From positions 145,018,001 through 145,082,000 of the forward strand of contig OX597814.1 of NCBI GenBank assembly GCA_951406725.2: DNA of 64,000 nucleotides, read 5' to 3'. Positions 7,206 to 63,249 of this stretch are shown one piece after another. Both the position numbers and the translations under genes were made by a program. This DNA is from Octopus vulgaris. Lineage: Eukaryota. Positions within the stretch are counted from its first letter, which is position 1, and the number at the start of each line of letters is the position of its first letter. The notes beneath the pieces are model-generated. The model had not been told where the DNA came from. It did not search any database and was given only the letters and a program-made list of their open reading frames with translations.

Positions 7206-7213
<8 letters not shown>

Positions 7214-7704
7214 ATATTTCGGAATGGTCATATTGCCAGTTTAGCCAATAAAAACACACGCACTATATATTTGGTGTTATTTTGCTTCAGTGATATTTAT
7301 TTTTTACATTAATCTTAATCTTATTTCGGCCAAAGTTCTTTCGTCACACTCCTGTGACCGCATCAGTGGTCCTTTGTTTTCTTCTCACTTACTTGTGTCT
7401 CTCCTTACTAACCGTCAGCCATTTTGTATACAAAATGGCTGACGGTTAGTAAGGAGAGACACAAGTAAGTGAGAAGAAAACAAAGGACCACTGATGCGGT
7501 CACAGGAGTGTGACGAAAGAACTTTGGCCGAAATAAGATTAAGATTAATGTAAAAAATAAATATCACTGAAGCAAAATAACACCAAATATATAGTGCGTG
7601 TGTTTTTATTGGCTAAACTGGCAATATGACCATTCCGAAATATAACAATATCTGTTTCAACACACGACTTCACATAAAAAATCTTGCACAACAAATATTT
7701 AAAC

Positions 7705-7708
<4 letters not shown>
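7206..7708. mobile_element. 446 bp spacer-less palindrome plus ~55 bp tail inside (TA)n; PLE pseudo-LTR-like
   Basis: 7206-7428 is the reverse complement of 7429-7651 (centre GTA|TAC). Unique tail at 7652-7708. (TA)n on both sides. Confidence 0.8.
7485..7529 (+). ncRNA. Minimal type I hammerhead-ribozyme-like motif with variant core (mirror copy on minus strand, 7328-7372)
   Basis: GGACCA CTGATGCG GTCACA-GGAG-TGTGAC GAAA GAAC TT TGGCC. Stem I is CCA/TGG and stem II is 6 bp. The core is CUGAUGCG rather than CUGANGA. Confidence 0.55.
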
Positions 7709-24974: not shown

Positions 24975-25362
24975 TGCCCAAACGACCTGAACATTAGCTT
25001 CAAGGTTCATTCAAGACTGGGACTACGGGCCATACGTACCCTGCCCAATTCGAGATCACAGCATACATGTACACTGCAACATAATTTCTTTTCCTGAACA
25101 GGCCCTTCCTTATTTAACATTGTCCCGAAAGAGATCAAAGAGGCAAAGGATCCCATCAACTTTAAACGGAGTCTGGATAGATTCCTTCAAGGAATACCAG
25201 ATATATACACACTTATATTAACTTATATGCATACAACTCACCCAACAAAAACTCACTACTTGAATGGACCATAAACAAAACCTGACTTAAACATGATTTA
25301 GATAATCCTATCAGGTGGTGCTATTAAGTTAGATATGGCCTGGACCAATCTTTGGTCGAAAC
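24975..25362 (+). mobile_element. CR1/L2-group LINE 3' fragment (diverged relative of the 59-63 kb element)
   Basis: PNDLNISFKVHSRLGLRAIR...GPSLFNIVPKEIK...FKRSLDRFLQ...NSLLEW, plus the same 3' motif CAGGTGGTGCTATTAAGTTAGA.ATGGCCTGG. Confidence 0.85.
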
Positions 25363-25365
25363 ATA

Positions 25366-25780
25366 TACTCTTTTACTCTTTTACTTGTTTCAGTCATTTG
25401 ACTGCGGCCATGCTGGAGCACCGCCTTTGGTCGAGCAAATCGACCCCGGGACTTATTCTTTGTAAGCCCAGTACTTATTCTATCGGTCTCTTTTGCCGAA
25501 CCGCTAAGTGACGGGGACATAAACACACCAGCATCGGTTGTCAAGCAATGCTAGAGGGACAAACAGAGACACACAAACATATACATACACATACATACAT
25601 ATATATACATATATACGACAGGCTTCTTTCAGTTTCCGTCTACCAAATCCACTCACAAGGCATTGGTCGGCCCGGGGCTATAGCAGAAGACACTTGCCCA
25701 AGATGCCACGCAGTGGGACTGAACCCAGAACCATGTGGTTGGTAGGCAAGCTACTTACCACACAGCCACTCCTGCGCCTA
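25366..25780 (-). mobile_element. SINE family A, full length
   Basis: Minus strand has A-box TGGCTGTGTGG, B-box GGTTCAGTCCC, CORE-like CTTGGGCAAGTGTC, an internal microsatellite, and tail GAAACAAG(TAAAAGAG)2. Confidence 0.9.
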
Positions 25781-26424
25781 TCTAAGTTTTATCTAAGCTT
25801 TATATATATGTATATGAAAAAATGTATAAACAATTGACGTAGCGTATACTGAATGTAAAAAAGAACGGGAGACAAACAGAAGGTCCGTAATTCTTCGTCA
25901 GTTATCCACCAACTGGTAATATTCAGTTTCGTACCTTTATAGTTAAGACTGAGTGCTTCCCAATTGGCGGTGCACGCAAAAAGATTTCTTGCGTAGAATT
26001 AGGGACAAGAGCAAAAAGAAAAAAAACACACAAAAAAACAAGCAAACGACACAGAGTGTGATTTAGGATGGTGGAGTGGGACGAACTGTCGCACAAAATA
26101 CGACCTTGGGGCCAAAGAGATGAGAATAGAGGGTAACGCTTAGAAAATGTCTTGAAGGATGGAGAACGGAGAGAGAGAGAGAATTTTGCAACTGGTCAGC
26201 TACGAGACCAGTCTAAGAAATATATGTCAATATATGCATGTGCATACAAATATATATATACAGGAAGAGGAACTGGCCGCTGGTCACGTTACAGCAGCTG
26301 GCAGAGAAGAAAGACAACAAAGAGAGGGAACGACAGAGGAAAAACAAGGAAAGAGACGAAGGGGAAGGAGAAAGACTAGGAATACAAGAGGGGGAGAGAG
26401 ACAAGGAGTAAGTAAAAACACATG

Positions 26425-26488
<64 letters not shown>

Positions 26489-26599
26489 CATAAGCGCGTA
26501 CATATCTTTACTCACACAGATAAAGGTAAATCTTCCTATACATAGTTATGTATATATAGGTACACCGACATATACAGATATATGTAATATATGTATATC

Positions 26600-26654
<55 letters not shown>

Positions 26655-27741
26655 TGTGTGTATGTATGTATATTTATTTAAATAGAGACTTATAAACACC
26701 TGTAGATACAAAGAATGTATGTGTGTGTGTGTGTATACAAGACCAAAATATAAAAATATATATGTACATACACATAACTTCACTCACTCTCTTAAACGCA
26801 TATATGAGAAACTATGCTATTTCGTTATTTACCAAAAACATCGGCATTAAATTTCTATCTTCTCATTTCTTATTTCCTCTGACTAAATATTTAAAAAGCT
26901 GGAGATAAAATAAACAATATACTTTATGATGTTATGGATAAATCTTTGAGCATAGTGTATTTTATTTTCGTCTTACCTTCTCGTCCTAGCTAAAATTGAG
27001 ATTAGATATAAAATATAAATTCTACTTCTCATTACAACCGCCATATTAAATTGATGGTCTAAACGTCGCCTTCTTGTAATAATCTTTATATAAAGCTGTG
27101 AATCTTTTCAACAGAAGGCAGCATATTTAGATATTTAATCTATTAATATGAAGTCCGTTTTGTGTAATCCTATTGCAGATTGGAGAAAATCCTCGATGGC
27201 GACATTTTTCTTGAATAGATTTAGTCTGAAGACAATGATAGAAGCTTTGGTTACAACTCTTATAACGCATAAACTGATTGAGCAATTTCTTTCACAAGCA
27301 CAAGAATCAGAGATTTTAGAAGCGTGAAAATTTGTTCTGATGTTAATTCCTTTACCATTAGTATTAGATCTAGTAATTTGTGCGTGGTTAACATGATTTC
27401 AGGTTCGGTTCCCCTGCATGTTGGACACATATCGCAAATATATCACAAACGATGTAATATACGTTACAACTTTGAAGTAGAAAAGAATTTGAACATTTCA
27501 GTGGAAACAGTCACGAACAGATGAAATGTCAACCAGCTTAAAAGATAAGCTTAGTGAGAGAGGAATGCGACTAGGAAATAGCGTGGAGGTTACGAGTGTT
27601 AGTAGAAGGATAACATTAAAACTGAGTAGAAAAAATGGATCAGCAACAGATCTGAAAAACTCTGAGAGGAGCAGTGTGTATACGTATCTCACTATATACA
27701 TCTAGGTATATATATGTGAGTGTGTGTGTGTGTGTGTATAC

Positions 27742-27778
<37 letters not shown>

Positions 27779-27795
27779 TGTACATATATATATAA

Positions 27796-27869
<74 letters not shown>

Positions 27870-27871
<2 letters not shown>

Positions 27872-28575
27872 TCTGATCTGTCCCCTTCTCTCTCTCTCTC
27901 TACTTCTCCTTTTCTCTTTTCTTGCCTCTGATTCTTTGGTCTACTCTTCCCCCACTCTCTCACATTTCTCTGTCCTCACTTTGCACTCACAAGCCAATCC
28001 TTGGCATGCACTCTTTCTTCTCCCCTCTTTAATTCCTTCTTTCTCTCTTTTCTCCCCCTTTGTTGCCTTCGTCCCTCTTTTTCTCTCTCTCTTTGTTTCC
28101 TTTGCCCCCTTTCTTTTCTCTCTCTTCTCTCACGTGACTGCTGGTCAAATCAGCCCTTTTGGCCTCCGACCACTGTCGTGAGAACATCGTTGTCTTCGTC
28201 TGCCGATAAAGGCATTTTTTCCAAATACGCCAGCTAAGCTTGTTGTACTGTTTATTAGTCGTAAGACACCCGCTGTTTTTGTCCTGTTTTTACTATTATT
28301 ATTTTTTGTATTTTATATTCGTGTGGCATCGTCCGTTTTTCTGTCCCTGTTTCGTATACATTCGATCCTTCTTCCAAGAAATCTAATGCTCATAGCTTAG
28401 TTTTTCCTTGGGGCTGGCCGGATCGGAGCGATCTCAAGATTAATCAGCCGAAATTGCTAGGATGATCCGGTTCTTGACTGAAGATTGAAGGCTTCGAATG
28501 TCCCGTCCGTGTTTTTTGTATCGTCTCCTAAATGTCTTACGTTCTTGTCCCAGTTTGTATTTTTCTACATATAAT
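27870..28575. repeat. Unclassified pyrimidine-rich element between (TA)n tracts
   Basis: Bounded by TA tracts. Its end ACGTTCTTGTCCCA..TGTATTTTT..ACATAT also occurs alone at 9507-9547. Confidence 0.4.
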
Positions 28576-30389
28576 ATATATTTATATATATATACCTACA
28601 TACATATATGTATACACACACACACACACACATACACATATATATTTATATATATATATAGATAGATAGACATATATATGTGGATATATATATGTATGTG
28701 CACATCTATGTACAGCATCCCCTTTATATGTACATCTTATGTTCATCTTTGAATTACACTAGAACTTTCACTTCATTCAACATTTATCAGCCAGCCCGCT
28801 GTGAAGGAAGGAGCGGAAAGGGAAGCCTTGCCGAGATTTCGATCCCTTAAACTTTTTCATTCGCTTATTGTGCATCTTGGCTCATTTTCTCATTGTACTT
28901 GCTATGAATCTTATCAGTGGTCTATAATTCTGTTTGACCTTTTTGACATTCGTGTTAAGGAGCTTCTGCTTAACACGGGAGCAGTTAGAGTTCAATTAGA
29001 AATGTGTACTGGTTACTACCTCTATCACCATCGCTCCGCTAAAATACTTTGTAACTATTACACAATAGTAACTAATAACAAAGAAACACGCTCGTAACTA
29101 TCCACCTACATATATCTACACATATTGTAGAATATGTACTTGCATCGGTATAAAGATTCAATATAAATTTTTGCAAACGTTTTGTAAATAAACGCTTACA
29201 TTTACATATTCTTTAAAAGCCTTTTTACATACACCTAAATAAAAGATGAGATGGTCACGGATAAAATGTGTTTAACTTAGATCTGTTCAATCATTGGTTG
29301 ACCAGGGGATAAATAACATCAGTAAAAAACGGATCCTACTGTTCCCAATGCAAGTTTTCTGATAGTATAGTATTTTAACAACTCAGAACTGATATGAAAA
29401 GATATCCAGGAATAGCACAAAAACGTTGGCGTGACAATATTGTGAGATATAACTCTGCATACATTAGGCACAGTTATACAAGACCAAAATATAAAAATAT
29501 GTACAATGATCGATATGCCATGTCCTTTAGACAAACATATTGATCAAAGAAACTCAAAAGATTCTCAAAATATAATATTTGCAAATAGAGCTAGGAAGGA
29601 TTTCAGGGAAATGATATTACTTTAGTCACGTAAGCAATAGGAGCGCTAATGTTAAGGAAAAACATACATGATATCTATAAAAAAACAGAAAATATAATCC
29701 TAACGTTCTCCATTTAACAGTGTCCAAGTCTTAGAAAAAATTCCGCCTACCTAAACAGTCGAAAACAAACATAAATGAAAATAACAATAATCAGAATAAC
29801 ATACTATATACAAACGATGCTCATACATCACCTTTACTCGGACAAAGAGACAGTCATATGTCCTTCCTTTCTCTTCCTCCTCTTCTTTTTTTCTCCCTCT
29901 CTTTCTGTTATGCATAAGCATCTAGCACTATATTATTGGAATCAACGAGGGACTTTCTATATGGTCGCTCGAACGGCTAGAAATACCAGCAAATTCTATC
30001 TCGAATAACACTCTGTTGTCTTAAAGTAGGACGAACATTTTAAATAATTTTAACCCTGAATATACTCCTAAAACTAGTACAGGGTCATAGCTGAAACGCT
30101 TCTAATCATTATCATAATTGACTAAGGCAGGTTGCGGTTAAGGAACGTAAACAGTTAATTTCGAATGCGATTAAAGGTGGGAATTAATTGGGTTGGTGAA
30201 CTAATGAGAGAGCCCACAAGCTAAAAGGTGAAACTGCTGGACGTAAAATCGTATTATTTTTTGGGTAGGTTTTACCCCTCGTACCCTTGACATCATATTA
30301 TCATCAATCGCAGTAGACAAATACTGGGTAAGATTCATTCAATTAATATTTCTCAATAGGAAATTTGTAGCCTTGTGTAAGGTAATCAG

Positions 30390-30880
30390 TACATGGCCAC
30401 TACGACAAAGACGATGACGACAGTGATCCCCGCCACCACCACACCATCACCACAACAACGAAGACAATCATAAGCATCTTCACCGTACGCCATCTGCATA
30501 ACCAGTACCAATGTTATCACAATCTCCACTTTTACACTTAATATTATTACCACCATTATCAACACCATCGCTACCATCAAAATTGATATTCCTACCCCCA
30601 GCACTGCTAACCATGCAGCTACTACCACTACCCCACCCCCACATTATTCCCACGACCAGGACTTCTATCTCTTTTAACATTCCATCACCACTATAATCAC
30701 CACCACCTCTACGATTCCCACCAACCCTATAGTACAATCGTAACCATCACCACCACCATCAATACAATTAAAATCCTCACTGGCAGCGCTACCCACGCCT
30801 ACCACTTCCACCATCACCACTACTACTACTAGCACCGCCACCACTACCATCACCATCAATTACACCAGCAATAACAATGA
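30390..30880. repeat. Degenerate (CCA/CTA/ATC)n low-complexity tract
   Basis: Directly visible. Confidence 0.8.
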
Positions 30881-31166
30881 GGTCAATAATGAAACAACGG
30901 AGGTTCTATATGGTCGGCCCATCTGCTAGAAATCTTCAGATAAGAGATTATTGCTTTAAGAAAGAAATGAATAACATATTTTAAGTAGTTTATTAGAGGC
31001 GTAGAAGTAGCTGTGTGGTAAGTATCTTGCTTACCAACCACATGGTTCCGGGTTCAGTCCTACGGCGTGGCATCTTGGGCAAGTGTCTTCTACTATAGCC
31101 TCGGGCCGACCAAAGCCTTGTGAGTGGATTTTGTAAACGGAAACTGAAAGAAGCTCGTCGTATATA

Positions 31167-31197
<31 letters not shown>

Positions 31198-31283
31198 ATT
31201 AGAGACAAAACCACTATTTTGCAAAACAAACAAGGAAAGACTTAATCAATACATAAAATTTTAATAAAAAGTCAAAAAAACCG

Positions 31284-31326
31284 CCACTACAGTTGTTTCT
31301 TGTCTTGATCGACAATCTTCAGGTGG
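31284..31326 (-). ncRNA. Minimal type I hammerhead ribozyme (mirror copy)
   Basis: Minus strand reads CCAC CTGAAGA TTGTC-GATCAA-GACAA GAAA CAACTG TA GTGG. Confidence 0.7.
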
Positions 31327-34300
31327 ACTTCCAATCTAAAATATCAATATTTTAAAATATAAAAATAATAATTTTAAAATAATTAAAGTATTAATGAAAA
31401 AATATAAATATATAATCTATTTATAACCTATATATAATCCATATATAATCAATATATAAACAATATGTAAACTAAAATAAACCTATCAACAATTAAATAT
31501 AAAATATAAAATATAAAATATAAAATATAAAATATAAAACAAAACAAAAAATAAACTATATATACACCCATACACATATAACTAATTATATATAACCATA
31601 TCTAAATACATACACTAAATCACACACCTATATATATATCCCTATACATACACATAAAAACGTCTAGGCAACGATAAATAAATAAAATAGCTAAATACTT
31701 CAACACAATACTTATTCATACTCCCTCACACACACATACAACCCACATTCCCGCTCTAGAAACGGACATCACTTAAAATTATGAACGGAGAAATGGAATA
31801 AATGGAATTAAAAATTATATTCACTTGGTAAAACGAACACTACTTAAAAATTATGAATGAAATAATGCAATAAAACAACAGACATCGCAAATAGACACAA
31901 ATTACTACGAATTCCTTAACAAAACTACCATGATAAACCAAAACTCATAAAAACATATAATGATAAAATCTCCCTTTACTAAACTCTATAACATACCTAT
32001 ATAGCAATCCCCCTAACCTAAACATTCACACACAAATACACACACGTAAACCACACACCCACGACATATACAAATACCCACCCCACTTACACATACCTAT
32101 ACATACATATAAACCTCAACATATACTCCAAAAACCCACTCAACCCCACACAGACAAATAAACACATACATCCCCAAACCTAAATAGCAAACCCATAAAC
32201 ACATTCACACACAAATATACATACGTAAAACACACACCATATACATATACATACTCACCAAACTCGATATATACAACAATATTAACACACCCACATTCAT
32301 ACAGATAAACAAACTACACAACCAAAATACGCACACACTCACACACAATCCCACATACATAAACACTCCAAAGAAAAACAAACATTATTACACATAATAC
32401 GATATATAAAATACATCGTAAGTAACCAGAATATCAAAAATAACAATATGACATAAGGAGAAATAATATACATACTTTCAAGTCAGTTTCAAATTATGAA
32501 GTGAAATTAAATTCTAATCCTTTAAAACCATCAAACCAAATTACGTTACCATAGGAACATAACTTATGTATAAAAAGAATACGCGCTATGGAAGCAAACC
32601 TCACTTAAAATTATGAATGGAGAAATAGAATAAATGGAATTAAAAATTATATACACGCGGTAAACCAACATTATTTTAAAAAATTATGAATGGATTCTTT
32701 TATAAAACTACCATGATAAACTAAAACTCACAAAAACATAAATGATAAAACCTCCCTTTACTAAACCCTATAACATACTTATATAGCAATCCCTTTAACC
32801 TATACATTCACACACAAATACACACAATTGTTTGTTAGAGCTGCAAGGATGAATTAAAGCTCATAAATGCATATAATAATTCATCATGGTAGTTTTATTA
32901 AAGAATCCATTCATAATAATTTTTTTAAGTAGTGTTGGTTTGCCACGTGGATATAGTTTTTAGTTCCATTTATTCTATTTCTCCATTCATAATTTTAAAT
33001 GACGTTTGCTTTCCATGGCGCGTATTCTTTTTATACATAAGTTATGTTTCTATGGTAACGTAAGTTTGGTTTGATTTTTTTAACGGCTTAGAATTTAATT
33101 TCACTTCATAATTTGAAACTGACTTGTAAGTATGTATTTTATTTCTCCTTATGTCATATTGTTATTTTTGATATTCTGGTTAATTACGATGTATTTAATG
33201 TTGTTTTTATTGGAGTGTTTATGTATGTGAGATTGTGTGTGAGTGTGTGCGTTTTTTAGTTGTATAATTTATTTATCTGTATGAGTGTGGGTGTGTAAAT
33301 ATTGTTGTATATATCGAGTTTAGTGAGTATGTATATGCGTATATGTGAGGGAGTATATGTATCTGTTGTGTGTGTGTGTTTTGCGTGTGTGTGTGTTTGT
33401 GTGTGAATGTGTATATGGGTTTGTTATATAGGTTTGGGGATGTATGTGTTAATTTGTCTGTGTGGGAGGGAGTGGGTTTTTGGTGTATATTGAGGTTTAT
33501 AAGTTAGTATAGGTATGTGTGAGTGAGGTAGGTATTTGTATAAGTCGTGGATCTGTGGTTTACGTGTGTGTATTTGTGTGTGAATGTTTAGGTTAGGGGG
33601 ATTGCTATATAGGTTTGTTATAGAGTTTAGCAAAGGGAGATTTTATCGTTATATGTTTTTATGAGTTTTGGTTTATCATGGTTTTTTTAGGGAATTCGTG
33701 GTAATTTGTCTATTTACGATGTTTGTTGTTTTATTACATTGTTTCATTCATAATTTTTGAGTGGTGTTCGTTTTGCCACGTGAATATTATTTTTAATTCC
33801 ATTTATTCCATTTCTCCATTCATAATTTTAAAAGATGTTCGTTTCCAGAGCGGGAATACTTTTTATACATATGTTAAGTTCCTTGGTAACGTAATTTTGT
33901 TTGGTGTATATGTTGAGGCTTATATGTACTTGTGGGTGTGTGTGAGTGGGGTGGGTGTTTGTATTTGTTATGGGTGTGTGGTTTACGTGTGTGTATTTGT
34001 GTGTGAATGTATAGGTTAAAGGGATTGCTATATAAGTATGTTATAGGGTTTAGTAAAGGGAGGTTTTATCATTTATGTTTTTGTGAGTTTTAGTTTATCA
34101 TGGTAGTTTTATAAAAGAATCCATTCATAATTTTTAAAATAATGTTGGTTTACCGCGTGTATATAATTTTTAATTCCATTTATTCTATTTCTCCATTCAT
34201 AATTTTAAGTGAGGTTTGCTTCCATAGCGCGTATTCTTTTTATACATAAGTTATGTTCCTATGGTAACGTAATTTGGTTTGATGGTTTTAAAGGATTAGA

Positions 34301-35486
34301 ATTTAATTTCACTTCATAATTTGAAACTGACTTGAAAGTATGTATATTATTTCTCCTTATGTCATATTGTTATTTTTGATATTCTGGTTACTTACGATGT
34401 ATTTTATATATCGTATTATGTGTAATAATGTTTGTTTTTCTTTGGAGTGTTTATGTATGTGGGATTGTGTGTGAGTGTGTGCGTATTTTGGTTGTGTAGT
34501 TTGTTTATCTGTATGAATGTGGGTGTGTTAATATTGTTGTATATATCGAGTTTGGTGAGTATGTATATGTATATGGTGTGTGTTTTACGTATGTATATTT
34601 GTGTGTGAATGTGTTTATGGGTTTGCTATTTAGGTTTGGGGATGTATGTGTTTATTTGTCTGTGTGGGGTTGAGTGGGTTTTTGGAGTATATGTTGAGGT
34701 TTATATGTATGTATAGGTATGTGTAAGTGGGGTGGGTATTTGTATATGTCGTGGGTGTGTGGTTTACGTGTGTGTATTTGTGTGTGAATGTTTAGGTTAG
34801 GGGGATTGCTATATAGGTATGTTATAGAGTTTAGTAAAGGGAGATTTTATCATTATATGTTTTTATGAGTTTTGGTTTATCATGGTAGTTTTGTTAAGGA
34901 ATTCGTAGTAATTTGTGTCTATTTGCGATGTCTGTTGTTTTATTGCATTATTTCATTCATAATTTTTAAGTAGTGTTCGTTTTACCAAGTGAATATAATT
35001 TTTAATTCCATTTATTCCATTTCTCCGTTCATAATTTTAAGTGATGTCCGTTTCTAGAGCGGGAATGTGGGTTGTATGTGTGTGTGAGGGAGTATGAATA
35101 AGTATTGTGTTGAAGTATTTAGCTATTTTATTTATTTATCGTTGCCTAGACGTTTTTATGTGTATGTATAGGGATATATATATAGGTGTGTGATTTAGTG
35201 TATGTATTTAGATATGGTTATATATAATTAGTTATATGTGTATGGGTGTATATATAGTTTATTTTTTGTTTTGTTTTATATTTTATATTTTATATTTTAT
35301 ATTTTATATTTTATATTTAATTGTTGATAGGTTTATTTTAGTTTACATATTGTTTATATATTGATTATATATGGATTATATATAGGTTATAAATAGATTA
35401 TATATTTATATTTTTTCATTAATACTTTAATTATTTTAAAATTATTATTTTTATATTTTAAAATATTGATATTTTAGATTGGAAGT

Positions 35487-35529
35487 CCACCTGAAGATTG
35501 TCGATCAAGACAAGAAACAATTGTAGTGG
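35487..35529 (+). ncRNA. Minimal type I hammerhead ribozyme
   Basis: CCAC CTGAAGA TTGTC-GATCAA-GACAA GAAA CAATTG TA GTGG. Complete CUGANGA/GAAA/UH core, 4 bp stem I, 5 bp stem II, palindromic stem III ACAATTGT, GUA site. Confidence 0.8.
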
Positions 35530-35699
35530 CGGTTTTTTTGACTTTTTATTAAAATTTTATGTATTGATTAAGTCTTTCCTTGTTTGTTTTGCAAAATAGT
35601 GGTTTTGTCTCTAATAATATTATATAATATTTTACTATAAAATTGGATTTAATCCTAAATCTGATTTTTTCCCTGTAAATTTGGATTTATTCCCTAATA

Positions 35700-35750
<51 letters not shown>

Positions 35751-36292
35751 TGTGTGTGTGTGTGCGTATGTGTGTGTGTGTGTCTGTTTGTCCCCACCCC
35801 CAACATCGCTTGACAACCGTTGGTGGTGTGTCCCCGTAACTTAGCGATTCGGCAAAATAGACCGATAGAATAAGTACTAGGCATCCAAAAATAAGTCCTG
35901 GGGTCGATTTGCTCGACTAAAGGCGATGCTCCAGCATGGCCAAAGTCAAATGACTGAAACAAGTAAGTAAAAGAAAGTGGAATGGATGTGGCTGGAACGC
36001 TTTTACCTTATGTCTGCTTCATCAAAAAGCTGACCTAGACATAAAGGACACAACAATAGAAATAATATCAAAAACTTAAATTACAAAATTAGAAAATGGA
36101 AGGCACTTTGGATAATGTGAACCTAAATACTATACTATCCCTGAAAAATTAGATGGATGGTCAAGGATAGATCATTGCTTAATGTGATCAAAACTGAATT
36201 TTTATCGCCTTATCGTTAAATGATTTTTCTTCATTTGTGGTGGTGATATCATTGAATCGAAGAACGTACAGTTAATTGCAGGTATTTAATTT

Positions 36293-37685
36293 GGATCCAG
36301 GCACAAAGTCTCAGGAAAACATCACATGAATTAAATAGTATAGGAAAAATTAAATGGTATTGGAAAAATTAAATAGTATAGGAAATTGAATAGTATATCT
36401 GTCGTTCCAAAAAAAAAAAAAAAAAGAAGAAAGAAAATATCACAAACAAGTACTAAAAATCGTGAAAGAAAATTATGCAGGAAACATGCGTGTAAAAAAT
36501 AAACGAAAAATATTGAAAAAGTCGTTGAAACATGACTAAAAAGGTCACGCAAAAAGTCACACAAATATGTCGTTTAAAGTAGTCGCGAAAAAGGTCAACT
36601 ATAAAGTCACTGAAAGTAGTCACAGAAGAGTGCTATTGAAAAATTTACTAAGAAAACATAGGGGTTATAGATTCACCGAAAAAGAGTAATTGAAAAATGC
36701 TACAAGAAGACTTGACACCGAAAAATGTCACCGAGAAGAAAATCACTGGGTGACTGGCAATGATAACAAGAAAACATTAAACAGAAAATTTTATAGAAAA
36801 TTTGTCATTGAAAAATTCACAGTAAAATGTCACTGGTAAAAAAAAAGAAAAGAGAAGAGAAGTCACTGGAGAAAATCACAAGAAATAATCCTTAAAAAAA
36901 TTAACAGGAAAATGTGACAGAAAAAGTCACGAAACTCAATGAGAAATATCGCTGAAATAATCGTATGAAATAGTGTTACAAGAACAATTAAAAAGAAATA
37001 GTATCTGAAAAGTGGTTGGAAATAAAGCTTAACAAATTAAAGACATAATCCACTAGAACTTCTCAAGTAAAGAAAAATATCACAGAAGGAATCAAAAGAT
37101 AAAAGTCACAGAAAAATTGACGTTTCTTACAAATGGCACATTATAAAAGTCACAGGAGAAAATCAGAGTAAAAATTATCTGGAGACAGGTTAAAAACCAC
37201 AGAAACAGTCTTAGGAAAAGTCACGGATAATGTCAGAAAAATAAAAGTGACTGAAACGTGTTACAGACTAAAGTCACTTCGAGAAATCACCAGGGAATAA
37301 GTCGCTGAATGACTGCTGATAGAAAGCACATTTAGAAAGAAAAATTCACTGGAAAATAAGTCACATGAGAAATTTACTTCTGAATGCAAAAGAGTTATTG
37401 GAGAAAGTTGCAAAAAAAAAAATAATAATAATAGTTAAATACACAAATGTCATTGAAGAAAAAATATCCCAGGGTAAATGTGACGCGAAATTGGAAAAGA
37501 AAAATTTCCTGAAGTTTGTCACGCAGAAAATATACGGAAAAAAGCCACATAAAATTGTGCTGTAAAACGTAACAGAAATAAAAAAAAACAGCTACTAAAT
37601 AAAATTACTGAAAGCAGGTACGGGATAAAGTCATAGCAAAATGATAATGTAAAAAGTAAGGGAAAAGGATCACAGAAAAACTTCA
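36293..37685 (+). repeat. Degenerate tandem array of AAAAGTCAC(A/T)GA-like units
   Basis: GTCAC or ATCAC after an A-run recurs dozens of times; the array starts GGATCCAGGCACAAAGTC. Related units occur at 15005-15180. Confidence 0.7.
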
Positions 37686-37711
37686 ATAAAAACTGATTAT
37701 ATATATATATA

Positions 37712-38207
37712 TACTCTTTTACTTGTTTCAGTCATTTGACTGTGGCCATGCTGAAGCACCGCCTTTAGTCGAGCAAATCGACCCCAGGACTTATTCTTTG
37801 GAAGCCTAGTACTTATTCTATCGGTCTCCTTTACCGAACTGCTACGTTGTCAAGCGATGTTGGTGGGGGACAAACACACACACACACAAACATATATACA
37901 CACATATATATATACATATATACGACGGGCTTCTTCCACCAAATCCACTTGCCCAAGACGACACTTGCCCAAGACGACACTTGCCCAAGACGACACTTGC
38001 CCAAGACGACACTTGCCCAAGACGACACTTGCCCAAGACGACACTTGCCCAAGACGACACTTGCCCAAGACGACACTTGCCCAAGACGACACTTGCCCAA
38101 GACGACACTTGCCCAAGACGACACTTGCCCAAGGTACCACGCAGTGGGACTGAACCCAGAACCATGTGGTTGGTAAGCAATCTACTTACCACACAGCCAC
38201 TCCTGCG

Positions 38208-38210
<3 letters not shown>
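37712..38210 (-). mobile_element. SINE family A with an internal 16 bp x 12 expansion
   Basis: Family A head and tail. GCCCAAG recurs every 16 bp from 37951 to 38127. Confidence 0.9.
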
Positions 38211-38261
<51 letters not shown>

Positions 38262-39221
38262 GTTCTATTTAAGGTGAATAAAGCTTGATTTTTTTAATGA
38301 CAGGGTATAAACTATGTTAAATGGGAAACGCTAGTATGAAATATATTATCATAATATAAAAAGGCATGTATTGTTAGTTAATAAGCTATTTTAAATATGA
38401 TTTATGGTTACCAAATGAAATATATAGCAATTTTCCCATAACTTTTTTCGCTATAGTGAGAATTGTGACAATTTTCTGTTTCTTTCCCCTTCGTATTGCA
38501 TTTTCCCGTTTACTTTTAATTTACTGCTTTACAATTTGGAGTCGATATGAAACGAATTTGAACTCACTGTGTTAATATTGAGAAAACTATTTTTTTTTAA
38601 AAAGAAAATGTAAATTAATATCAACATCGCAAATCCAAGGAAACGAAGGAATGGTTTAGAATATTTTTCTTTCCTTTATTTCGCTGAAACCAATTTGATG
38701 AGTATTGAATCTGGTGGTTTTATTTTACGAAAGGTTCTGTTATGTTACAAAAATCACAGCGCACGAAATAATCACGTGACGTGTTTGGTCAGAGATTATT
38801 ATTACAGTTATCGTGTGCTCATTTCTTTATCTCCTAGTCATTGTTATTCCTCTCATATCGTTCACAATATTCTTTTATCGTTGGTTAGCTTAGGAGAGAG
38901 TGAGAGAGAGAGAGAGAGATGACGGGAGAGAGAGAAATAGAAAGAGAGAGTAAAAACGAGAGGATGAGATAGAGAGAAAGAGAGAAAGAGAGAGAGAGTG
39001 GGAATCATTACTATGAACATTCAAAGACACGCACACATATTCATAAAGAACCGACATAACAGTATAACAGAAAGATACATAAACATACACACGCACACAC
39101 ATACACACGCATACACACATACACACATACACACAGGAAACCTTACACATGCACGAACATCCGCATATATAAACCAACAGTAGAGATGCGAACACATACA
39201 TACACAGACCACACACGTACA

Positions 39222-47690: not shown

Positions 47691-48353
47691 TGCTCGTTCT
47701 GGCTTAGGAAGCGTTGAAGGAAACTAGCTGATAAGCATCGATACTACTTATTTGCGTGAAGAAAGAACAGAAATTGCAACCTGGACAGCTGAGATAGGTA
47801 AGAGATAGAGAACGAGGGACTGATGAGTGGGAGAGGAGGTGTGGTCTATCTGCGAGGAAGAGATGAGTGGGATTTACTTTGCAACGAAAACCAAAGATAT
47901 TAGAAAAGAGGAGAGAAAATTATATGCCGGGTTTAATTCTGGAATTCGGAAGTTCGAATAAGCGAACAATGGCGGTGGGAAAATTTAGGATAATCCGCAA
48001 CCATAGTAGTGATCCAATGCTTGCAGCAGAGCGAACTCTGCTAAGGCAAAACAAGGGCAGATGGTGGCATCAAACAGGATGACATCATGGACTTTCTACT
48101 AAAATGGGAAACTTCTGCTATGTATGTGTGTATACATACATACATACACACACATACACACACACACGCACACACATATATATTTGTTCAGCAAAATTTA
48201 GATTCAGATGAATATGGTACTTAAGTTAGATGCTCCAGAATTTTGTATGGTGTGATCCATATAAATCCATGGGGTGATTACAATCAAAATAAGCAACAAG
48301 TATATCCGAGGTATATACTTGTTGTTTATTTTGATATGTATATATATATGTAA

Positions 48354-48402
<49 letters not shown>

Positions 48403-48407
<5 letters not shown>

Positions 48408-48864
48408 AAACAAGTCAAAAATAGAAAATGCTAAAATAATTTTATAGTGAACATTTCAGTACCGGTTTCGGTCATTTTGAGACCTTTTCAACTGTAACGA
48501 TTAAATAATTAAATTTAGAAAAATTAGAAGAAAAGTTTTTTTAAAAGAATATTTCTATAGTAGTGTTCAGATTTAAGTGGCATTCTGCCTTTCTCTGACT
48601 CCCTTGTTTGCACTTGTGCACTTGTGCAAACAAGGGAGTCAAGAAAGGCAGAATGCCACTAAATCTGAACACTACTATAGAAATATTCTTTTAAAAAACT
48701 TTTCTTCTAATTTTTCTAAATTTAATTATTTAATCGTTACAGTTGAAAAGGTCTCAAAATGACCGAAACCGGTACTGAAATGTTCACTATAAAATTATTT
48801 TAGCATTTTCTATTTTTGACTTGTTTTTTCATATATATCAACTCGTGTGTTCCTTTTCACCCTT
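48403..48864. mobile_element. ~430 bp palindrome plus short tail inside (TA)n; PLE pseudo-LTR-like
   Basis: 48403-~48612 is the reverse complement of ~48624-48831 with a few indels. Tail at 48839-48864. Confidence 0.8.
48740..48777 (+). ncRNA. Minimal hammerhead ribozyme, U3-A8 variant (mirror copy 48457-48494 minus)
   Basis: CAG TTGAAAA GGTC-TCAAAAT-GACC GAAA CCGG TA CTG. Stems I and II pair, stem III is the palindrome ACCGGT, and C3-G8 is replaced by U3-A8. Confidence 0.7.
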
Positions 48865-48934
<70 letters not shown>

Positions 48935-48959
48935 GTATATATGTATATATATGTATATA

Positions 48960-49023
48960 CAGTTGCGGCCAAAATGTTCAGAACGGCATTGTTTTCGTCA
49001 GAAAAGTAAGTATAAGTTTTTAT

Positions 49024-49027
<4 letters not shown>
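48960..49027. mobile_element. Isolated outer 68 bp of the Tc1 TIR
   Basis: TA-CAGTTGCGGCCAAAATGTTCAGAACGGC..., near-identical to 49200-49267. Confidence 0.85.
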
Positions 49028-49097
<70 letters not shown>

Positions 49098-49101
49098 TAC
49101 A

Positions 49102-49177
<76 letters not shown>

Positions 49178-49199
49178 ATTCAATTTGTATACATATATA

Positions 49200-51310
<2,111 letters not shown>

Positions 51311-57463: not shown

Positions 57464-57655
57464 GGTCCCGGGTTGAGTCGGGGTTAACCACAGTAAATAA
57501 GGTACTCAATACATAGCAGAGTAAATTAATTTATTTTATAGAAGGAGCTTCTACAGGACTAGAACTGTTTCATTCAAAAGAAATCATCAGGAAGCTTCCT
57601 GATGATTTCTTTTGAATGAAACAGTTCTAGTCCTGTAGAAAGCTCCTTCTATAAA

Positions 57656-57661
<6 letters not shown>
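57461..57661. mobile_element. 133 bp spacer-less palindrome (57529-57661) plus left tail inside (TA)n; PLE pseudo-LTR-like
   Basis: Centre GAAG|CTTC at 57594/57595; the arms differ by one A. Tail at 57461-57528. Confidence 0.75.
57546..57596 (-). ncRNA. Hammerhead-ribozyme-like motif (mirror copy 57593-57644 plus)
   Basis: AGCTTC CTGATGA TTTCTTTTGAAT GAAA CAG-TTCTAGTC-CTG TA GAAGCT. Canonical core, 6 bp stem I and stem III ACAG/CTGT. Stem II is weak (TTC/GAA). Confidence 0.6.
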
Positions 57662-57690: not shown

Positions 57691-57772
57691 GTGAAGGGAA
57701 GAAATGGAGCTGAACGAAGATTCTACAACATTCCTTTTTATTATTTTCTACACATGTTTCAAAGGCTGCAAA
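57687..57772. repeat. 86 bp repeat, directly repeated at 63915-64000
   Basis: TTTAGTGAAGGGAAGAAATGGAGCTG...CATGTTTCAAAGGCTGCAAA occurs at both places. Confidence 0.9.
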
Positions 57773-57775
57773 TTC

Positions 57776-58512
57776 TCATGGCATCCAACAACATCAGAGA
57801 CCTGGGAGTAACAGTGGACAACAACATAAGCTGGGCTACACATATAAGCAGCAAAGTTGACATGGCCCGCAGAATGTGTTTCTGGATTCTCAGAACCTTC
57901 CAGTCGAGAGATTCCCACGCTATTATCCTTCTCTTCTCCACTTTTGCCCGACCCCACCTTGAATACTGCTGTCTACTGTGGTCTCCCTACACAAAACAAA
58001 ATACTATGAGAATTGAAGCTCCCCAAAGGTCAATCACAAAAAAGATAGATGGCATGTCAGACCTTGACTACTGGGGTAGACTAGAGAAGCTGAAATTGTA
58101 TTCACTCCAACGACGCCGTGAACGTTACATTATCTGTATGATGTGGAAAATATTCCACCAGCACTGTCCGAATGATGTTGGCATCACCTTCAAAATGCAT
58201 CCAAGGCTTGGACCACGTGCCATCCGTCAACAACAAAAATCTAAATCGCATCACATAACGACAATACGGCACAACTATTTCACCTCAATTGGACCTGCTC
58301 TCTTCAACATTACACCAGGGCACGTCAAAAAAGAAACTGACCATTCAAAATTCAAGAAGTCTTTGGACAAATTCCTTCAAACAGTACCGGACAAACCACC
58401 CACACCCGGATATGTCTCCGCAAACAATAACTCTCTGCTCGAATGGGCCTTGGTGCCCAAATCCTGAACTGAAAGACTTCACCAGGTGGTGCTATTAAGT
58501 TAGACATGGCCT
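57776..58512 (+). mobile_element. 5'-truncated CR1/L2-group LINE (RT C-terminus still open)
   Basis: NIRDLGVTVD..RPHLEYCCLLWSP..RLEKLKLYSLQRRRER is homologous to the minus element at 59020-59700. Confidence 0.9.
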
Positions 58513-58519
58513 AAGTACT

Positions 58520-58923
<404 letters not shown>

Positions 58924-59019
58924 TATATACTTTGATACTTTGATACTTTGATAGGTTTCGGCCATTATTGGCCCAGGCCATGTCTAACTTAATAGCACCA
59001 CCTGGTGAAGTCTTTCAAG

Positions 59020-62000
59020 TCAGAATTTGGGCACTATGGCCCACTCAAGTAGAGAGTTATTGTTTACAGAGACATATCCGGGTGTAGGGGGTTTATCCGG
59101 GATTTCTTGAAGGAATCTGTCCAAAGACTTCTTGAACCCTATAGGGTCAGTTTCTGTTTTAATGTGTTTTGGTGTAATGTTAAAGAGAGCGGGGCCAATT
59201 GAGGTGAAATAATTGTATATTGTTGTTATGAGATGAGAGTGCGATTTTTGTTTTGGGCGGATGGCACGGGGCCCAAGCCTTGGATGTACCTTAAAGGTGA
59301 TGCCAACATCATTTGGGCAATGCTGATGGAATATTTTCCACATCATGCAGATGATGTAGCGCTCACGACGACGTTGGAGAGAATAGAGTTTTAGCTTTTC
59401 TAGTCGACCCCAATAGTCGAGGCCTGTCATGCCATCTATCTTTTTGTGATTGCCCTTTGAGGTGCTTCAACTTTTATGATACCTTGTATTGTGTGGGGAG
59501 ACCACAGTGGACAACAGTATTCAAGGTGGGGTCGGGCAAAAGTGGAGAAGAGAAGGATAATGGTGTGGATATCTCTCGACTGGAAAGTTCTGAGAATCCA
59601 GGAACACATTCTGCGGGCCATGTCAACTTTGGTGTTTATATGAGTGGCCCAGCTTACGTTGTTGTCCACAATTACTCCCAAGTCTCTGATGTTGTTGGAC
59701 GCCGCGAGAGTTTCACCTGAAGGAAGGGAGTATGGGAGTTTCAGGGCATCCTCTTTTCCAAAGTGGATTAGCTCAAATTTATCCTCGTTCAGCAGCATAT
59801 TGTTTTTTTCTGCCCATTGGATAACAGCCAGTAGATCTGACTGAAGGCATGTCCGGTCACTCGCCTCATTTATGACCTTCTGTAGCTTGGAGTCATCTGC
59901 AAAGATTTTTATGTTGCTGTGCTTGATGATGTCATTAATGTCATTAATGTAAATGATGAAAAGAAGTGGGCCCAGCACAGTGCCTTGCGGAACGCCACTA
60001 CTGACTTTGGCTGGGCTTGATTTTACCCCTTCAACTACAACATGTTGAGATCTGTCTGTCAGGAAACACTTAATCCATTTCAGTAACTTTCCAGAGACAC
60101 CAATGTTGGATAGTTTTTTCAATAGGATCTTGTGATCGACCCTGTCGAAGGCCTTACTGAAATCAAGGTAGATGACATCGGTGTTGGAGCCCTCTCCCAA
60201 AGCTCTCAAAATGTCCTCAAAGTGATGCAGGAGCTGCGTTAGGCAGTCCCTTCCATTACGGAACCCATGTTGGTTGGAGATCAGCCGTCTGTTGCTTTCC
60301 AGAAATTGGGTTATTTGAGATCTCACCACCCTCTCAAATACCTTGATGATATGAGAGGTGAGTGAGATCGGACGGTAATTCACTGCAAGGGACTTGTTTC
60401 CCTTTTTGAAAACTGGGACAACAGACTGGGACAGAAGGTTTTTTGGAATATAGCCAGCATCCAGTGAGTTTCTCCACAGATTAGCAAGGGGAGATGCAAG
60501 TTGGTGTCGACACACCTTCAGGACACAAGCAGGGAACCTATCGGGGCCTACTGCTGAATTGTGTTTTATTTCGTTTATCGCCGCTAAGACATCAGGGGCA
60601 CTAAACGTTATGTCCGATATAGTGTGTTGGGGGTTGACATCACTGATACAGCCCAGATCGGCCATATCAGGATTGCTGAAAACAGAGCAGTATTGTTTCT
60701 GCAGTATCTCGGCCATGGATTTGGCATTATCTTGGAGAGTGCCAGTTTCGTCAATTAGAGGGCCTACAGTGGAGACAGTGACCCTGCGTTTCCTCGCAAA
60801 TGAAAAGAACACTTTGGGGTTGAGTTTGATTTTTTCAATGGCCCACTTCTCCTCAGCTGATCTTTGGTTATTGATGAGGGACTTCATGCATTGTTGGAGG
60901 TTATATTTTTTGGATTCAAGCAGTGCGATAGCCGTCGAATGTGTGTGTTGCTGTTGGCAGTACTTTAGTTTGTTAATTTTTTTGTTTGTTCTTTTTATTT
61001 TTCTGATAATGGTTTTTCTGTTTTGGGGGATTCTGCACTTTTTGTTCACAGGTCTTGGTGGGGAGTGTTTTGCACATATGTCTGTGACGGTGTCTACAAA
61101 GATCTGCCAAGATGTTTTATGGTTGGTGGAGATGTGTGTATGTGTAAAGGACCAGTCAACATTTGATAGCTCGTTCCTGATTGCATCCCAGTTGGCTTTA
61201 TGGAGATCCATGTTGTCAAATGGGTGGGCTGGAGGAAGGTCACTAGGATTAGCTTTCGGCTGGTGGAATTTCATGTTACAGAGAACCATGTCATGGTCTG
61301 AAAGAAGGGTTTTTTCCACTGTAACGTTATGTATAGTGTTAGTGTGGTTACTAAACACTAGGTCCAAAATGTTCTGATGTCTTGTTGGTGCAAGGACAAG
61401 TTGGGACAAGAAAAACTCATTCGTAAAGTCGAAAAGTGACTCTGCTGCTTCTTTGTCAGCGGTTGAGGCGGGAGTGCTTGGTTTCAAACAGTTTGTAGTC
61501 CAGTCAACACAGGGTAGATTGAAGTCTCCCATCATGAGTATGTTGCTAGAATGGCACTGTTGAATAAAGCACTTAATGCTGTTGAGGCATTCTTTAAAGC
61601 ACAGTATGGGTGTTTGGGGCGGCCTATAGAACCCAATTACTGTCAGATCATTGGCTTTGTTGTGCACGGTGACTGATTCACAGTAGCCGTTGGAGAATAT
61701 ACTATTTCCATCTGCCGTAAATGAATCATGCAGGAAAATGGCAGTTCCACCCTTCCTCCTGCCGATACGATCCGCGCGGATGGTTGTGAAATTCTTCACT
61801 CTCACTTCGGCTTCCAAGTGGGAGTTGTCAAGGTGGGTCTCAGTGAGAATGAAGAAAGGGATGTGGTGTGAATGGTTACCAACCCAGTCTTCAATGAATT
61901 GGACCTTCCATTTTTGTGCATTGATGGAAGGGCTGACACCTTGTGCATTGAGTAGGAATGTGGAGGTTAGTGTAGTGGCTGGTTTTGACTGTTGCAGGGG

Positions 62001-62135
62001 GCTTGGATTTTTTGTGTGTGTTAGTGGCAGCAATGTGGGGAATTGGTGCACTGGGGTAATAGCATAGGATGGTGTTGAGTGATGGCTAGAATGTTTTTGT
62101 GTATCTCTTTTGCCATGTTCAACATGGCTAAAAAA
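59020..62135 (-). CDS. LINE ORF2: apurinic-like endonuclease plus reverse transcriptase (one 1 bp frameshift near 59441)
   Basis: APE motifs LLNAQG, LTETHL, FYRPP, MGDFN, LDLVF and SDH. RT motifs YRPISLTS, QHGFR, YLDFSKAFD, GVPQGTVLGPLLF and FADD. The C-terminus continues in ORF 59020-59430. Confidence 0.92.
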
Positions 62136-63249
62136 GAATTTTCCTGCTTAGGGAGCAGTTTTTGGCTGGAGGTGTGGTTGCACTGTTGGATAGGGTTGTA
62201 GTTTCCACTTTTGTTGTTGTTGTTTTTGTGTCTTCCTGAAAAGACTGGACCAGCATTACTGCAGCATGGTGTGTTTCTATTTTTATTGTTATTCAGGTTT
62301 GTGTGTTGGCTTGAGGCCCCGTTTCTGTTTGTGCGTCGGGTCCCTGGAAGATGAGTGAAGGGACAGTCACTCAGTAGACATGTTCTCTCACGTTGGGAAT
62401 ACCGGCAGATTTTGGGACTCCGAGTTGTGTGTGTTTTGAATTTCGATTTACTATTTGGTGGTGTTGATGTTATTGTGGGATGCGTGCTTTGGCCTTGGCC
62501 GGTAGTGCGTCTAGTGCCGGGTAGATGCGTGAAGATGCAGTCACTATTTGTGCAGAGTCTCTGGCGCAGTGAATAGCGGCATATTTGGGGATTTCTTGTT
62601 TGTGCCGTGGGGGGCGCATTCTGCTTCCTATGTTTCTTTAAGTTTTTGTTACTGCAGTAGTATTGAGGTGGTGATGTGGGGGAAGAGGGCAGTGGTTTCT
62701 TATTTGGTTTTCTGTTGGTATTTTTGGTGATAGAAGACGATGGTGGCAGCGGTGGTGATGATGATGATGATAATTGTGGTGGTTGCTGTGAGAGCGGTGA
62801 AAAGATACTGGCATTTAGTGAATCGTCTAGTAAGCTAGAGTTGAGGAGTGGCTGTTGTTGTTCTTGTTGCTGTGGCTGTTGTTGTTGTTGTTGTGCCTGA
62901 CCGATGTCAGGGTCAGCCATTGTGCTGGGAACCAGGAGTGGCTCATTCTGTTGTTGTTGTTGTTGTGGCTGCTGATTTTCTAGCTGTTGTTGTTCTTGAA
63001 CTGTGAAAATATGTAGAAGCTTTTCATAATGGCCTCTTATCAGTTTGAAAGATACTTCGATATGTTTCAACTTGCTACGAATCTGTTTGACGGATCGTGT
63101 GTTGACCACTTGTGATGTTTTTTCGGCAATCTCATTCAAACACAAGACATTTAGATTTTCTGTTTGGGAAGAGAGAGCCATGTGTTTATTAAAACATCAA
63201 TTTCGTTATCAGACCAATTTCGTCTGTTGCAGGCCTGCAAGTTAGTCAT
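62021..63249 (-). CDS. LINE ORF1: Myb/SANT-like N-terminus, polyQ/Ser-Pro linker, two CCCH zinc fingers (probable 1 bp frameshift near 63175)
   Basis: ATG at 63249 gives MTNLQACNRRNWSDNEIDVLINTW, continuing in the tracked frame as EIAEKTSQVVNTRSVKQIRSKLKHIEVSFK. Two C-x8-C-x4-C-x3-H motifs, each followed by LPGTRRT. Confidence 0.75.

Follow-up and report, generated by a model that had tools for sequence, protein, structure and literature searches.

What placed a fold-back of about 4.5 kb, made of non-coding DNA, inside a short interspersed nuclear element (SINE) of the octopus genome? The locus lies in a 64,000-nucleotide stretch of Octopus vulgaris DNA (assembly GCA_951406725.2, contig OX597814.1, positions 145,018,001 to 145,082,000, forward strand), which is called the window here and to which coordinates refer unless a contig is named. 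An earlier note on the sequence had explained the element by copying in the style of Penelope-like elements (PLEs) and had called it retrozyme-like. Our analysis indicates that it is very probably one recent insertion made by an endonuclease-bearing PLE enzyme, derived from the 5'-truncated 3' end of a PLE RNA. Published sources are cited by accession or DOI.

Four structural tests placed the element with the insertions of endonuclease-bearing PLEs. An inverted, 5'-truncated copy is joined head to head to the 5' end of the sense copy. A 3' tail, here of 77 bp, is present on one side only. A type I minimal hammerhead motif, with a predicted dimer fold, lies in sense orientation near the 3' end, and (TA)n borders the element on both sides, inside a SINE, so that the target is a microsatellite or AT-rich site. 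Geometry, arm identities, target and motif are all directly observed. The open reading frame (ORF) for reverse transcriptase (RT) and GIY-YIG endonuclease is not in the inserted piece, as expected of a 5'-truncated copy (ORF, profile and Pfam searches). According to published accounts, PLE insertions are strongly 5'-truncated; at their 5' end they often bear a further truncated copy in inverted orientation, a tail of 30-40 bp is found on one side, and their hammerheads are located in the pseudo-long terminal repeat (pLTR) (PMC8557442); the inverted junctions bear palindromes (PMC3846280). The arm comparison, the tail and the architecture given in these two papers uphold the proposed PLE-style sense copy with a partial inverted copy. 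The architecture itself matches the published norm for PLEs.

Anatomy and target site

The element consists of one sequence together with its 3' part repeated as an almost perfect mirror image (Table 1). The earlier note had described near-identical inverted arms of 1.64 kb, a tail of about 80 bp on the right, strong strand skew, a spacer built of older copies of one unit, no credible ORF, and a SINE split into two matching halves by insertion as a unit. Measurement bore out each of these descriptions. In self-comparison, 31182-32826 aligned with 35630-33988 at 99.8% identity over 1645 columns; the arms, 31187-32826 and 33988-35626, differ only at 31292/35521, by a substitution, and at 32683/34131, where a T run has a 1-bp indel. 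At one substitution per ~1640 arm bases the event was very recent, unless the arms were homogenised later. The left outer edge is blurred by a TATATA common to the element and the TA tract, and was placed at 31187 by self-comparison and at 31191 in the earlier note. The tail measured 77 bp, and GC skew reached -0.85 on the left and +0.87 on the right, with the sign flipping across the junction. The longest ATG-initiated ORF in the sense copy has only 51 aa, and none of the nine element ORFs tested against Pfam (of 27 listed) was matched.

The spacer between the arms occupies 32827-33987 (1161 bases). Self-comparison found 32877-33857 to be 86% like 34091-35066, and CATGGT anchors occur at 32885, 33677, 34099 and 34881. 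Identity over gap-free columns is 93% between the long units and 78-83% for the other pairs. The body duplications (78-93%) are thus far older than the arms (99.9%) and were already present in the source element.

When rejoined, the SINE halves align end to end, across an internal TA tract, with the intact copy at 25369-25779(-). Two fixed SINE landmarks that are separated by 65 bp in the intact copy have 4641 bp between them at the element. The colinearity of the halves and the widened gap indicate that the element entered the TA tract as a unit; the halves may come from two separate SINE copies. We take the host to be an octopus SINE; no relevant paper containing its words was found, and ARAGORN found no tRNA in 25000-39000. 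In another SINE copy, a 16-bp unit derived from the SINE's own body is present in 11.8 perfect copies at 37946-38133, and the stretch following this unit in intact SINEs is missing.

Arms that are almost identical could also arise as a fold-back chimera in the library or the assembly, and several further fold-backs in the window, one of them perfect over 446 bp, would fit such an artefact. However, the flanks are colinear halves of one SINE, which read fold-back does not restore, and two sites distinguish the arms. Other fold-backs likewise show one-sided tails, hammerheads and TA targets, and two of them have aged arms of 83-86% identity. We consider an artefact very unlikely. Ranked below it is a DNA fold-back transposon, or giant miniature inverted-repeat transposable element, with 1.64-kb terminal inverted repeats and a TA target. 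The long inverted arms and TA-rich target agree with such a transposon, but the inverted repeat ends 77 bp before the right end and is hence not terminal, the left arm breaks off within a repeat unit, and the arms contain a PLE-type hammerhead.

Table 1. Features of the element and its host SINE, in window coordinates.
Feature	Position	Strand	Basis or remark
5' half of host SINE	30994..31160	+	91% over 164 bp to intact copy 25779-25616; colinear with 3' half
Left part of SINE (TA)n tract, merging with element edge	31161..31191	.	Common TATATA
Left arm, inverted 5'-truncated second copy, without tail	31187..32826	-	Mirror of 33988-35626
Mirror copy of type I minimal hammerhead, core 31322	31284..31326	-	Arm mirror; 31292 substitution breaks helix III palindrome
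Head-to-head inversion junction with 8-bp palindrome	32824..32831	.	Sequence reading
Sense copy, 2.88 kb, non-coding, T/G-rich, probably 5'-truncated	32827..~35703	+	Composition, ORF and profile data
Unit U1, long, 792 bp	32885..33676	+	93% to U3, gap-free columns
Unit U2, short, 422 bp	33677..34098	+	78-83% to other units, gap-free columns
Unit U3, long, 782 bp	34099..34880	+	93% to U1, gap-free columns
Unit U4, short, ~440 bp, 3' end fading	34881..35320	+	CATGGT anchor, unit comparison
Type I minimal hammerhead (right)	35487..35529	+	Core pattern, stem descriptor and fold; cleavage site predicted
Right hammerhead, stem I	35487-35490/35526-35529	+
Right hammerhead, core	35491-35497	+
Right hammerhead, stem II	35498-35513	+
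Right hammerhead, palindromic helix III	35517-35524	+	Predicted cut 35525/35526
One-sided 77-bp tail	35627..35703	+	Found past right arm only, no left mirror
Right part of SINE (TA)n tract and GT-rich continuation	35704..35790	.
3' half of host SINE	35775..35975	+	84% to intact copy 25575-25369

The hammerhead motif and its relatives

The hammerhead has a 4-bp stem I, a 5-bp stem II with U-A in place of G-C at its base, and a 2-bp stem III with a palindromic loop. A canonical hammerhead about 100 bp inside each end had been claimed previously. Each arm does carry a motif, but in the minimal, dimer-type form of PLEs and not in the canonical one; the distance of ~100 nt is correct for the end of the right arm, whereas the end of the element is ~175 nt away.

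The bare core pattern is not rare, with 5 occurrences in the window against 3.2 expected. The hammerhead itself exceeds chance: the stem I-III descriptor has exactly one match per strand in the 64-kb window; among Markov resamples it was recovered in 1 of 3000 for the 2.9-kb copy and in 0 of 100 for the window. A search of Rfam at E<=1 returned no hammerhead, its three matches all being TA/GT tracts. The predicted monomer fold was no better than those of shuffled sequences (z -0.08 to -1.16). For the dimer, the minimum-energy fold was a double hammerhead with an intermolecular 8-bp helix III (-24.6 vs -7.8 kcal/mol per monomer), and the helix III self-duplex was predicted at -1.0 kcal/mol for the left-arm copy and -6.4 kcal/mol for the right copy. 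On our reading the motif is the usual hammerhead of PLE pLTRs, predicted to fold only as a dimer. Dimer-type hammerheads with a palindromic helix III are known from animal PLEs and have weak activity in vitro (PMC4209133). An upstream direct pLTR would be marked by another hammerhead on the sense strand or by a repeated 3' end, and the element has neither; such a pLTR is optional in truncated PLE copies (PMC3846280).

A retrozyme, made of tandem hammerhead repeats copied from circular RNA, would share with the element its lack of coding sequence, the type I hammerhead and the tandem-like internal units. Animal retrozymes are composed of 150-450-bp tandem repeats with a hammerhead in every unit (PMC7229834; bioRxiv 10.64898/2026.07.22.740005). 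In the element there is one hammerhead per strand only and none in any of the four internal units, and the term 'retrozyme-like' therefore fails. The two hammerheads face apart on opposite strands, so that no single transcript is cut twice, and the units measure 420-790 bp and are 78-93% alike, against the 150-450 bp of PMC7229834. Animal non-LTR retrozymes are similar in being non-coding, in having a type I hammerhead and in their probable reliance on PLE enzymes. The element differs from them in lacking a hammerhead per unit and a head-to-tail hammerhead array, in its far larger size and in its minimal motif. A retrozyme is the least likely of the explanations outside the PLEs.

The exact hammerhead pattern had 0 matches in metagenome contigs, and a relaxed pattern gave 43 loci. 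None of the 43 is truly similar to the element at the DNA level, and several, being high in GC or without stem II, are chance matches. At four of the loci a PLE-type ORF ends 72-462 nt upstream of the motif, and these four show the arrangement CxxC..E..N..CxH that PMC8557442 gives for the Hydra clade. The PLE label of these ORFs, referred to below as the L036 type, is based on visible RT and YIG motifs, on CxxC..E..N..CxH, and on a precomputed GIY-YIG domain in one 48% relative. Among the ORFs near motifs, 56 of 158 were compared with Pfam, which gave one weak helix-turn-helix match and no RT or GIY-YIG name.

One contig, L036 (1-3174), contains a complete PLE-type element with a pLTR bearing a hammerhead, a 730-codon ORF, a 460-nt T-rich 3' region, a second pLTR and (TA)n. 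Its protein has 2810 relatives at E<=1e-30 among the 7998 candidates scored, and nearly all of the 120 listed are unnamed. In contig L021, the minus-strand match at 210-247 and the next 200 bases hold two hammerhead motifs on opposite strands, ~90 bases apart and tail to tail. A 20-mer from an internal unit of the octopus element was encountered at 6 loci in viral contigs; each match spans ~28 AT-rich bases only, and all were rejected as chance.

Insertion mechanism and comparison with known Penelope-like elements

In vitro, a PLE protein from Anolis nicked and extended both strands at AT-rich DNA. Two internal RNA start sites were used, the spacing of which equals the tail length, and hammerhead cleavage was dispensable (PMC11167929). 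For nicking, priming and end joining at the octopus locus we infer the following route. The GIY-YIG endonuclease would nick both strands within the (TA)n tract. The bottom-strand nick would prime reverse transcription at an outer start (~35703), and synthesis would run 2.9 kb to 32827; the top-strand nick would prime at an inner, TATATA-marked start (35626), from which synthesis would run 1.64 kb to 33988. Because the two complementary DNAs (cDNAs) cover the same region, the inner one would have been templated by a second RNA or by the second repeat of a tandem RNA. At the 8-bp palindrome the two cDNA ends would then meet and be joined head to head, and the 77-bp tail would represent the span between the two start sites. 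PMC3846280 proposes self-priming at the junction palindrome, which would be an alternative route to the same product.

Compared with PLEs bearing a C-terminal endonuclease (Penelope/Poseidon, Neptune and Hydra clades; PMC8557442, PMC3846280), the element is alike in its 5'-truncated sense copy, adjacent inverted truncated copy, one-sided tail, junction palindrome, hammerhead near the 3' end and (TA)n target. It differs in having no ORF, at least 2.66 kb of duplicated non-coding sequence and a 1.64-kb inverted arm, as well as in the length of its tail. Almost all families of the Hydra clade insert into (TA)n, and one of them, Hydra-1_Obim, comes from Octopus bimaculoides (PMC8557442). With this clade the element has in common the (TA)n target and a hammerhead with a short stem I and palindromic helix III, although the clade specificity of this shape is not established. 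The stems of the Hydra-1_Obim hammerhead differ from those of the element (PMC8557442), and three probe words from the element do not occur in the supplement to that paper. Pen1_Av of Adineta vaga likewise has a long non-coding spacer ahead of its 3' pLTR; its spacer is 0.9-1.5 kb and unique to each copy (PMC3846280), whereas the element has one of at least 2.6 kb that contains internal repeats.

Several observations weigh against assignment to the PLEs. The tail, at 77 bp, exceeds the published 30-40 bp, and a target-site duplication is unreadable within the TA tract. No second copy of the family occurs within the 64-kb window. PLE-type ORFs were absent from 39 of the 43 motif loci, and Pfam at E<=0.01 named none of the L036-type ORFs. 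Hydra families marked complete total just 2.1-2.7 kb (PMC8557442), and in the octopus element 2664 nt without an ORF precede the hammerhead, at least 5.8 times the length in the four metagenome analogues. A coding remnant tying the element to any PLE was also absent: a profile built from 115 of the 120 listed relatives of the L036 protein, and representing one clade only, found nothing in any frame of the 64-kb window (best E 1.5).

Source of the insertion and neighbouring elements

If the element is a PLE insertion, what was the RNA from which it was copied? Its unusual feature is the sequence 5' of the hammerhead, which is ORF-free and twice duplicated over at least 2.66 kb. Within its first 60 bases the sense copy includes a frame with the spacing C-x-x-C-x-x-E, but this frame is interrupted by a stop and did not score; the first ~50 bases were tried as the decayed end of a Hydra-type endonuclease and rejected, as the profile search gave no support.

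The most likely of three source readings, though falling somewhat short of an even chance, is an autonomous PLE in which duplications have swollen the non-coding region at the 3' end. What stands at the 5' end of the inserted copy is an inversion junction, which need not be where the source element began, and an ORF may therefore lie upstream in the source. In O. vulgaris, 190 PLE families account for 6.83% of the genome (PMC13282606), and 329 recently active Penelope insertions total 1,795,539 bp, or ~5.5 kb each (Table 1 of that paper). A mean insertion of this length leaves room for an ORF together with a 2.9-kb 3' region.

Less probably, and as the earlier note had proposed, the source was a dedicated non-autonomous family of at least 2.9 kb that has only the pLTR and hammerhead of a PLE and is copied in trans by an autonomous one. 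At least 2.66 kb without an ORF or detectable coding remnant, compared with 72-462 nt in the four analogues, would be in keeping with such a family. The two rounds of internal duplication suggest release from size constraint, and putative non-autonomous PLEs are described in Chlamydomonas (PMC8557442). On the other hand, no upstream pLTR or hammerhead is found at the 5' end, and that end is an inversion junction, PLE copies being typically 5'-truncated (PMC8557442).

It is improbable that a satellite-like or other host repeat was captured once ahead of a PLE pLTR, so that only the last few hundred bases would be PLE. Non-coding sequences do occur between pLTRs, as in the unique 0.9-1.5-kb spacers of Adineta vaga (PMC3846280), and the body of the element resembles a short higher-order repeat. 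However, the T/G-rich skew is continuous from the body into the hammerhead region, and no array of the unit is found elsewhere in the window.

In a sequencing-run listing, 20 of the 24 listed runs contained part of 30000-37500 and seven contained half or more. The larger shares carried four organism labels, and no RNA runs were among those listed. The flanks account for 51% of the distinct 31-mers of this query, so that shares of 0.70 and 0.65, from two studies besides that of the best-matching run, and of 0.59, under another organism label, should include words of the element. These larger shares, the only ones used, suggest that element words are present in other samples and under another organism label, as a rough bound within which this locus is not separable from other copies.

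The window also contains at least two smaller look-alikes, both fold-backs with hammerhead-like cores beside (TA)n. At 7206-7708, a perfect 446-bp palindrome (7206-7651) follows (TA)n and is itself followed by a one-sided tail of ~57 bp and further (TA)n; each arm has the hammerhead-like core CTGATGC (C at position 9), at 7491(+) and 7366(-). This is a miniature PLE-type fold-back of another family. The second, a 133-bp hairpin at 57529-57661, is followed by (TA)n; on either strand, a hammerhead-like core starts within a few bases of the hairpin's centre. An older fold-back at 1790-2095 has arms that are 83% alike; in its right end and tail it is similar to the 7206-7708 element.

A long interspersed nuclear element occupies 57770-63196. 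Its 903-codon frame for endonuclease and RT lies on the minus strand at 59436-62147, with Pfam matches to Exo_endo_phos and RVT_1, and is preceded by a frame of 391 codons. At 57770-59713 the 3' part of this element forms a fold-back with 86% identity that encloses a long TA tract. A protein of Argonauta hians matches an ORF of such an element in the window with 52% identity over 55% of the ORF, and unnamed proteins score higher. Transposase fragments (49470-50417, minus) lie among nested inverted repeats at 48334-50918; by their motifs we take them to be Tc1/mariner-like.

The element provides a clean and very young case of the known PLE insertion signature, with the split SINE supplying the pre-insertion site. 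Its two distinct 3' ends (35626 and ~35703) fit the two-start, both-strand priming of the Anolis PLE (PMC11167929). No description of this family, or of multi-kb non-autonomous PLEs in cephalopods, was found in the literature covered, to which subscription papers and repeat databases were mostly external. Should the family possess an ORF, it would count as a PLE whose 3' region is unusually long and built of repeats; if it has none, it would be a PLE passenger much larger than those found described. Either source reading would be relevant mainly to repeat annotation and to the origins of long double-stranded RNA (dsRNA) in this genome, and not as a new type of system. We hold it possible, if on balance doubtful, that an ORF-free, multi-kb passenger family of a (TA)n-targeting PLE is still mobile and has grown by internal higher-order duplication. 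Such a family would be several times larger than animal retrozymes, and its landing would build kb-long, near-perfect inverted repeats, which would be ready-made dsRNA substrates in a cephalopod genome.

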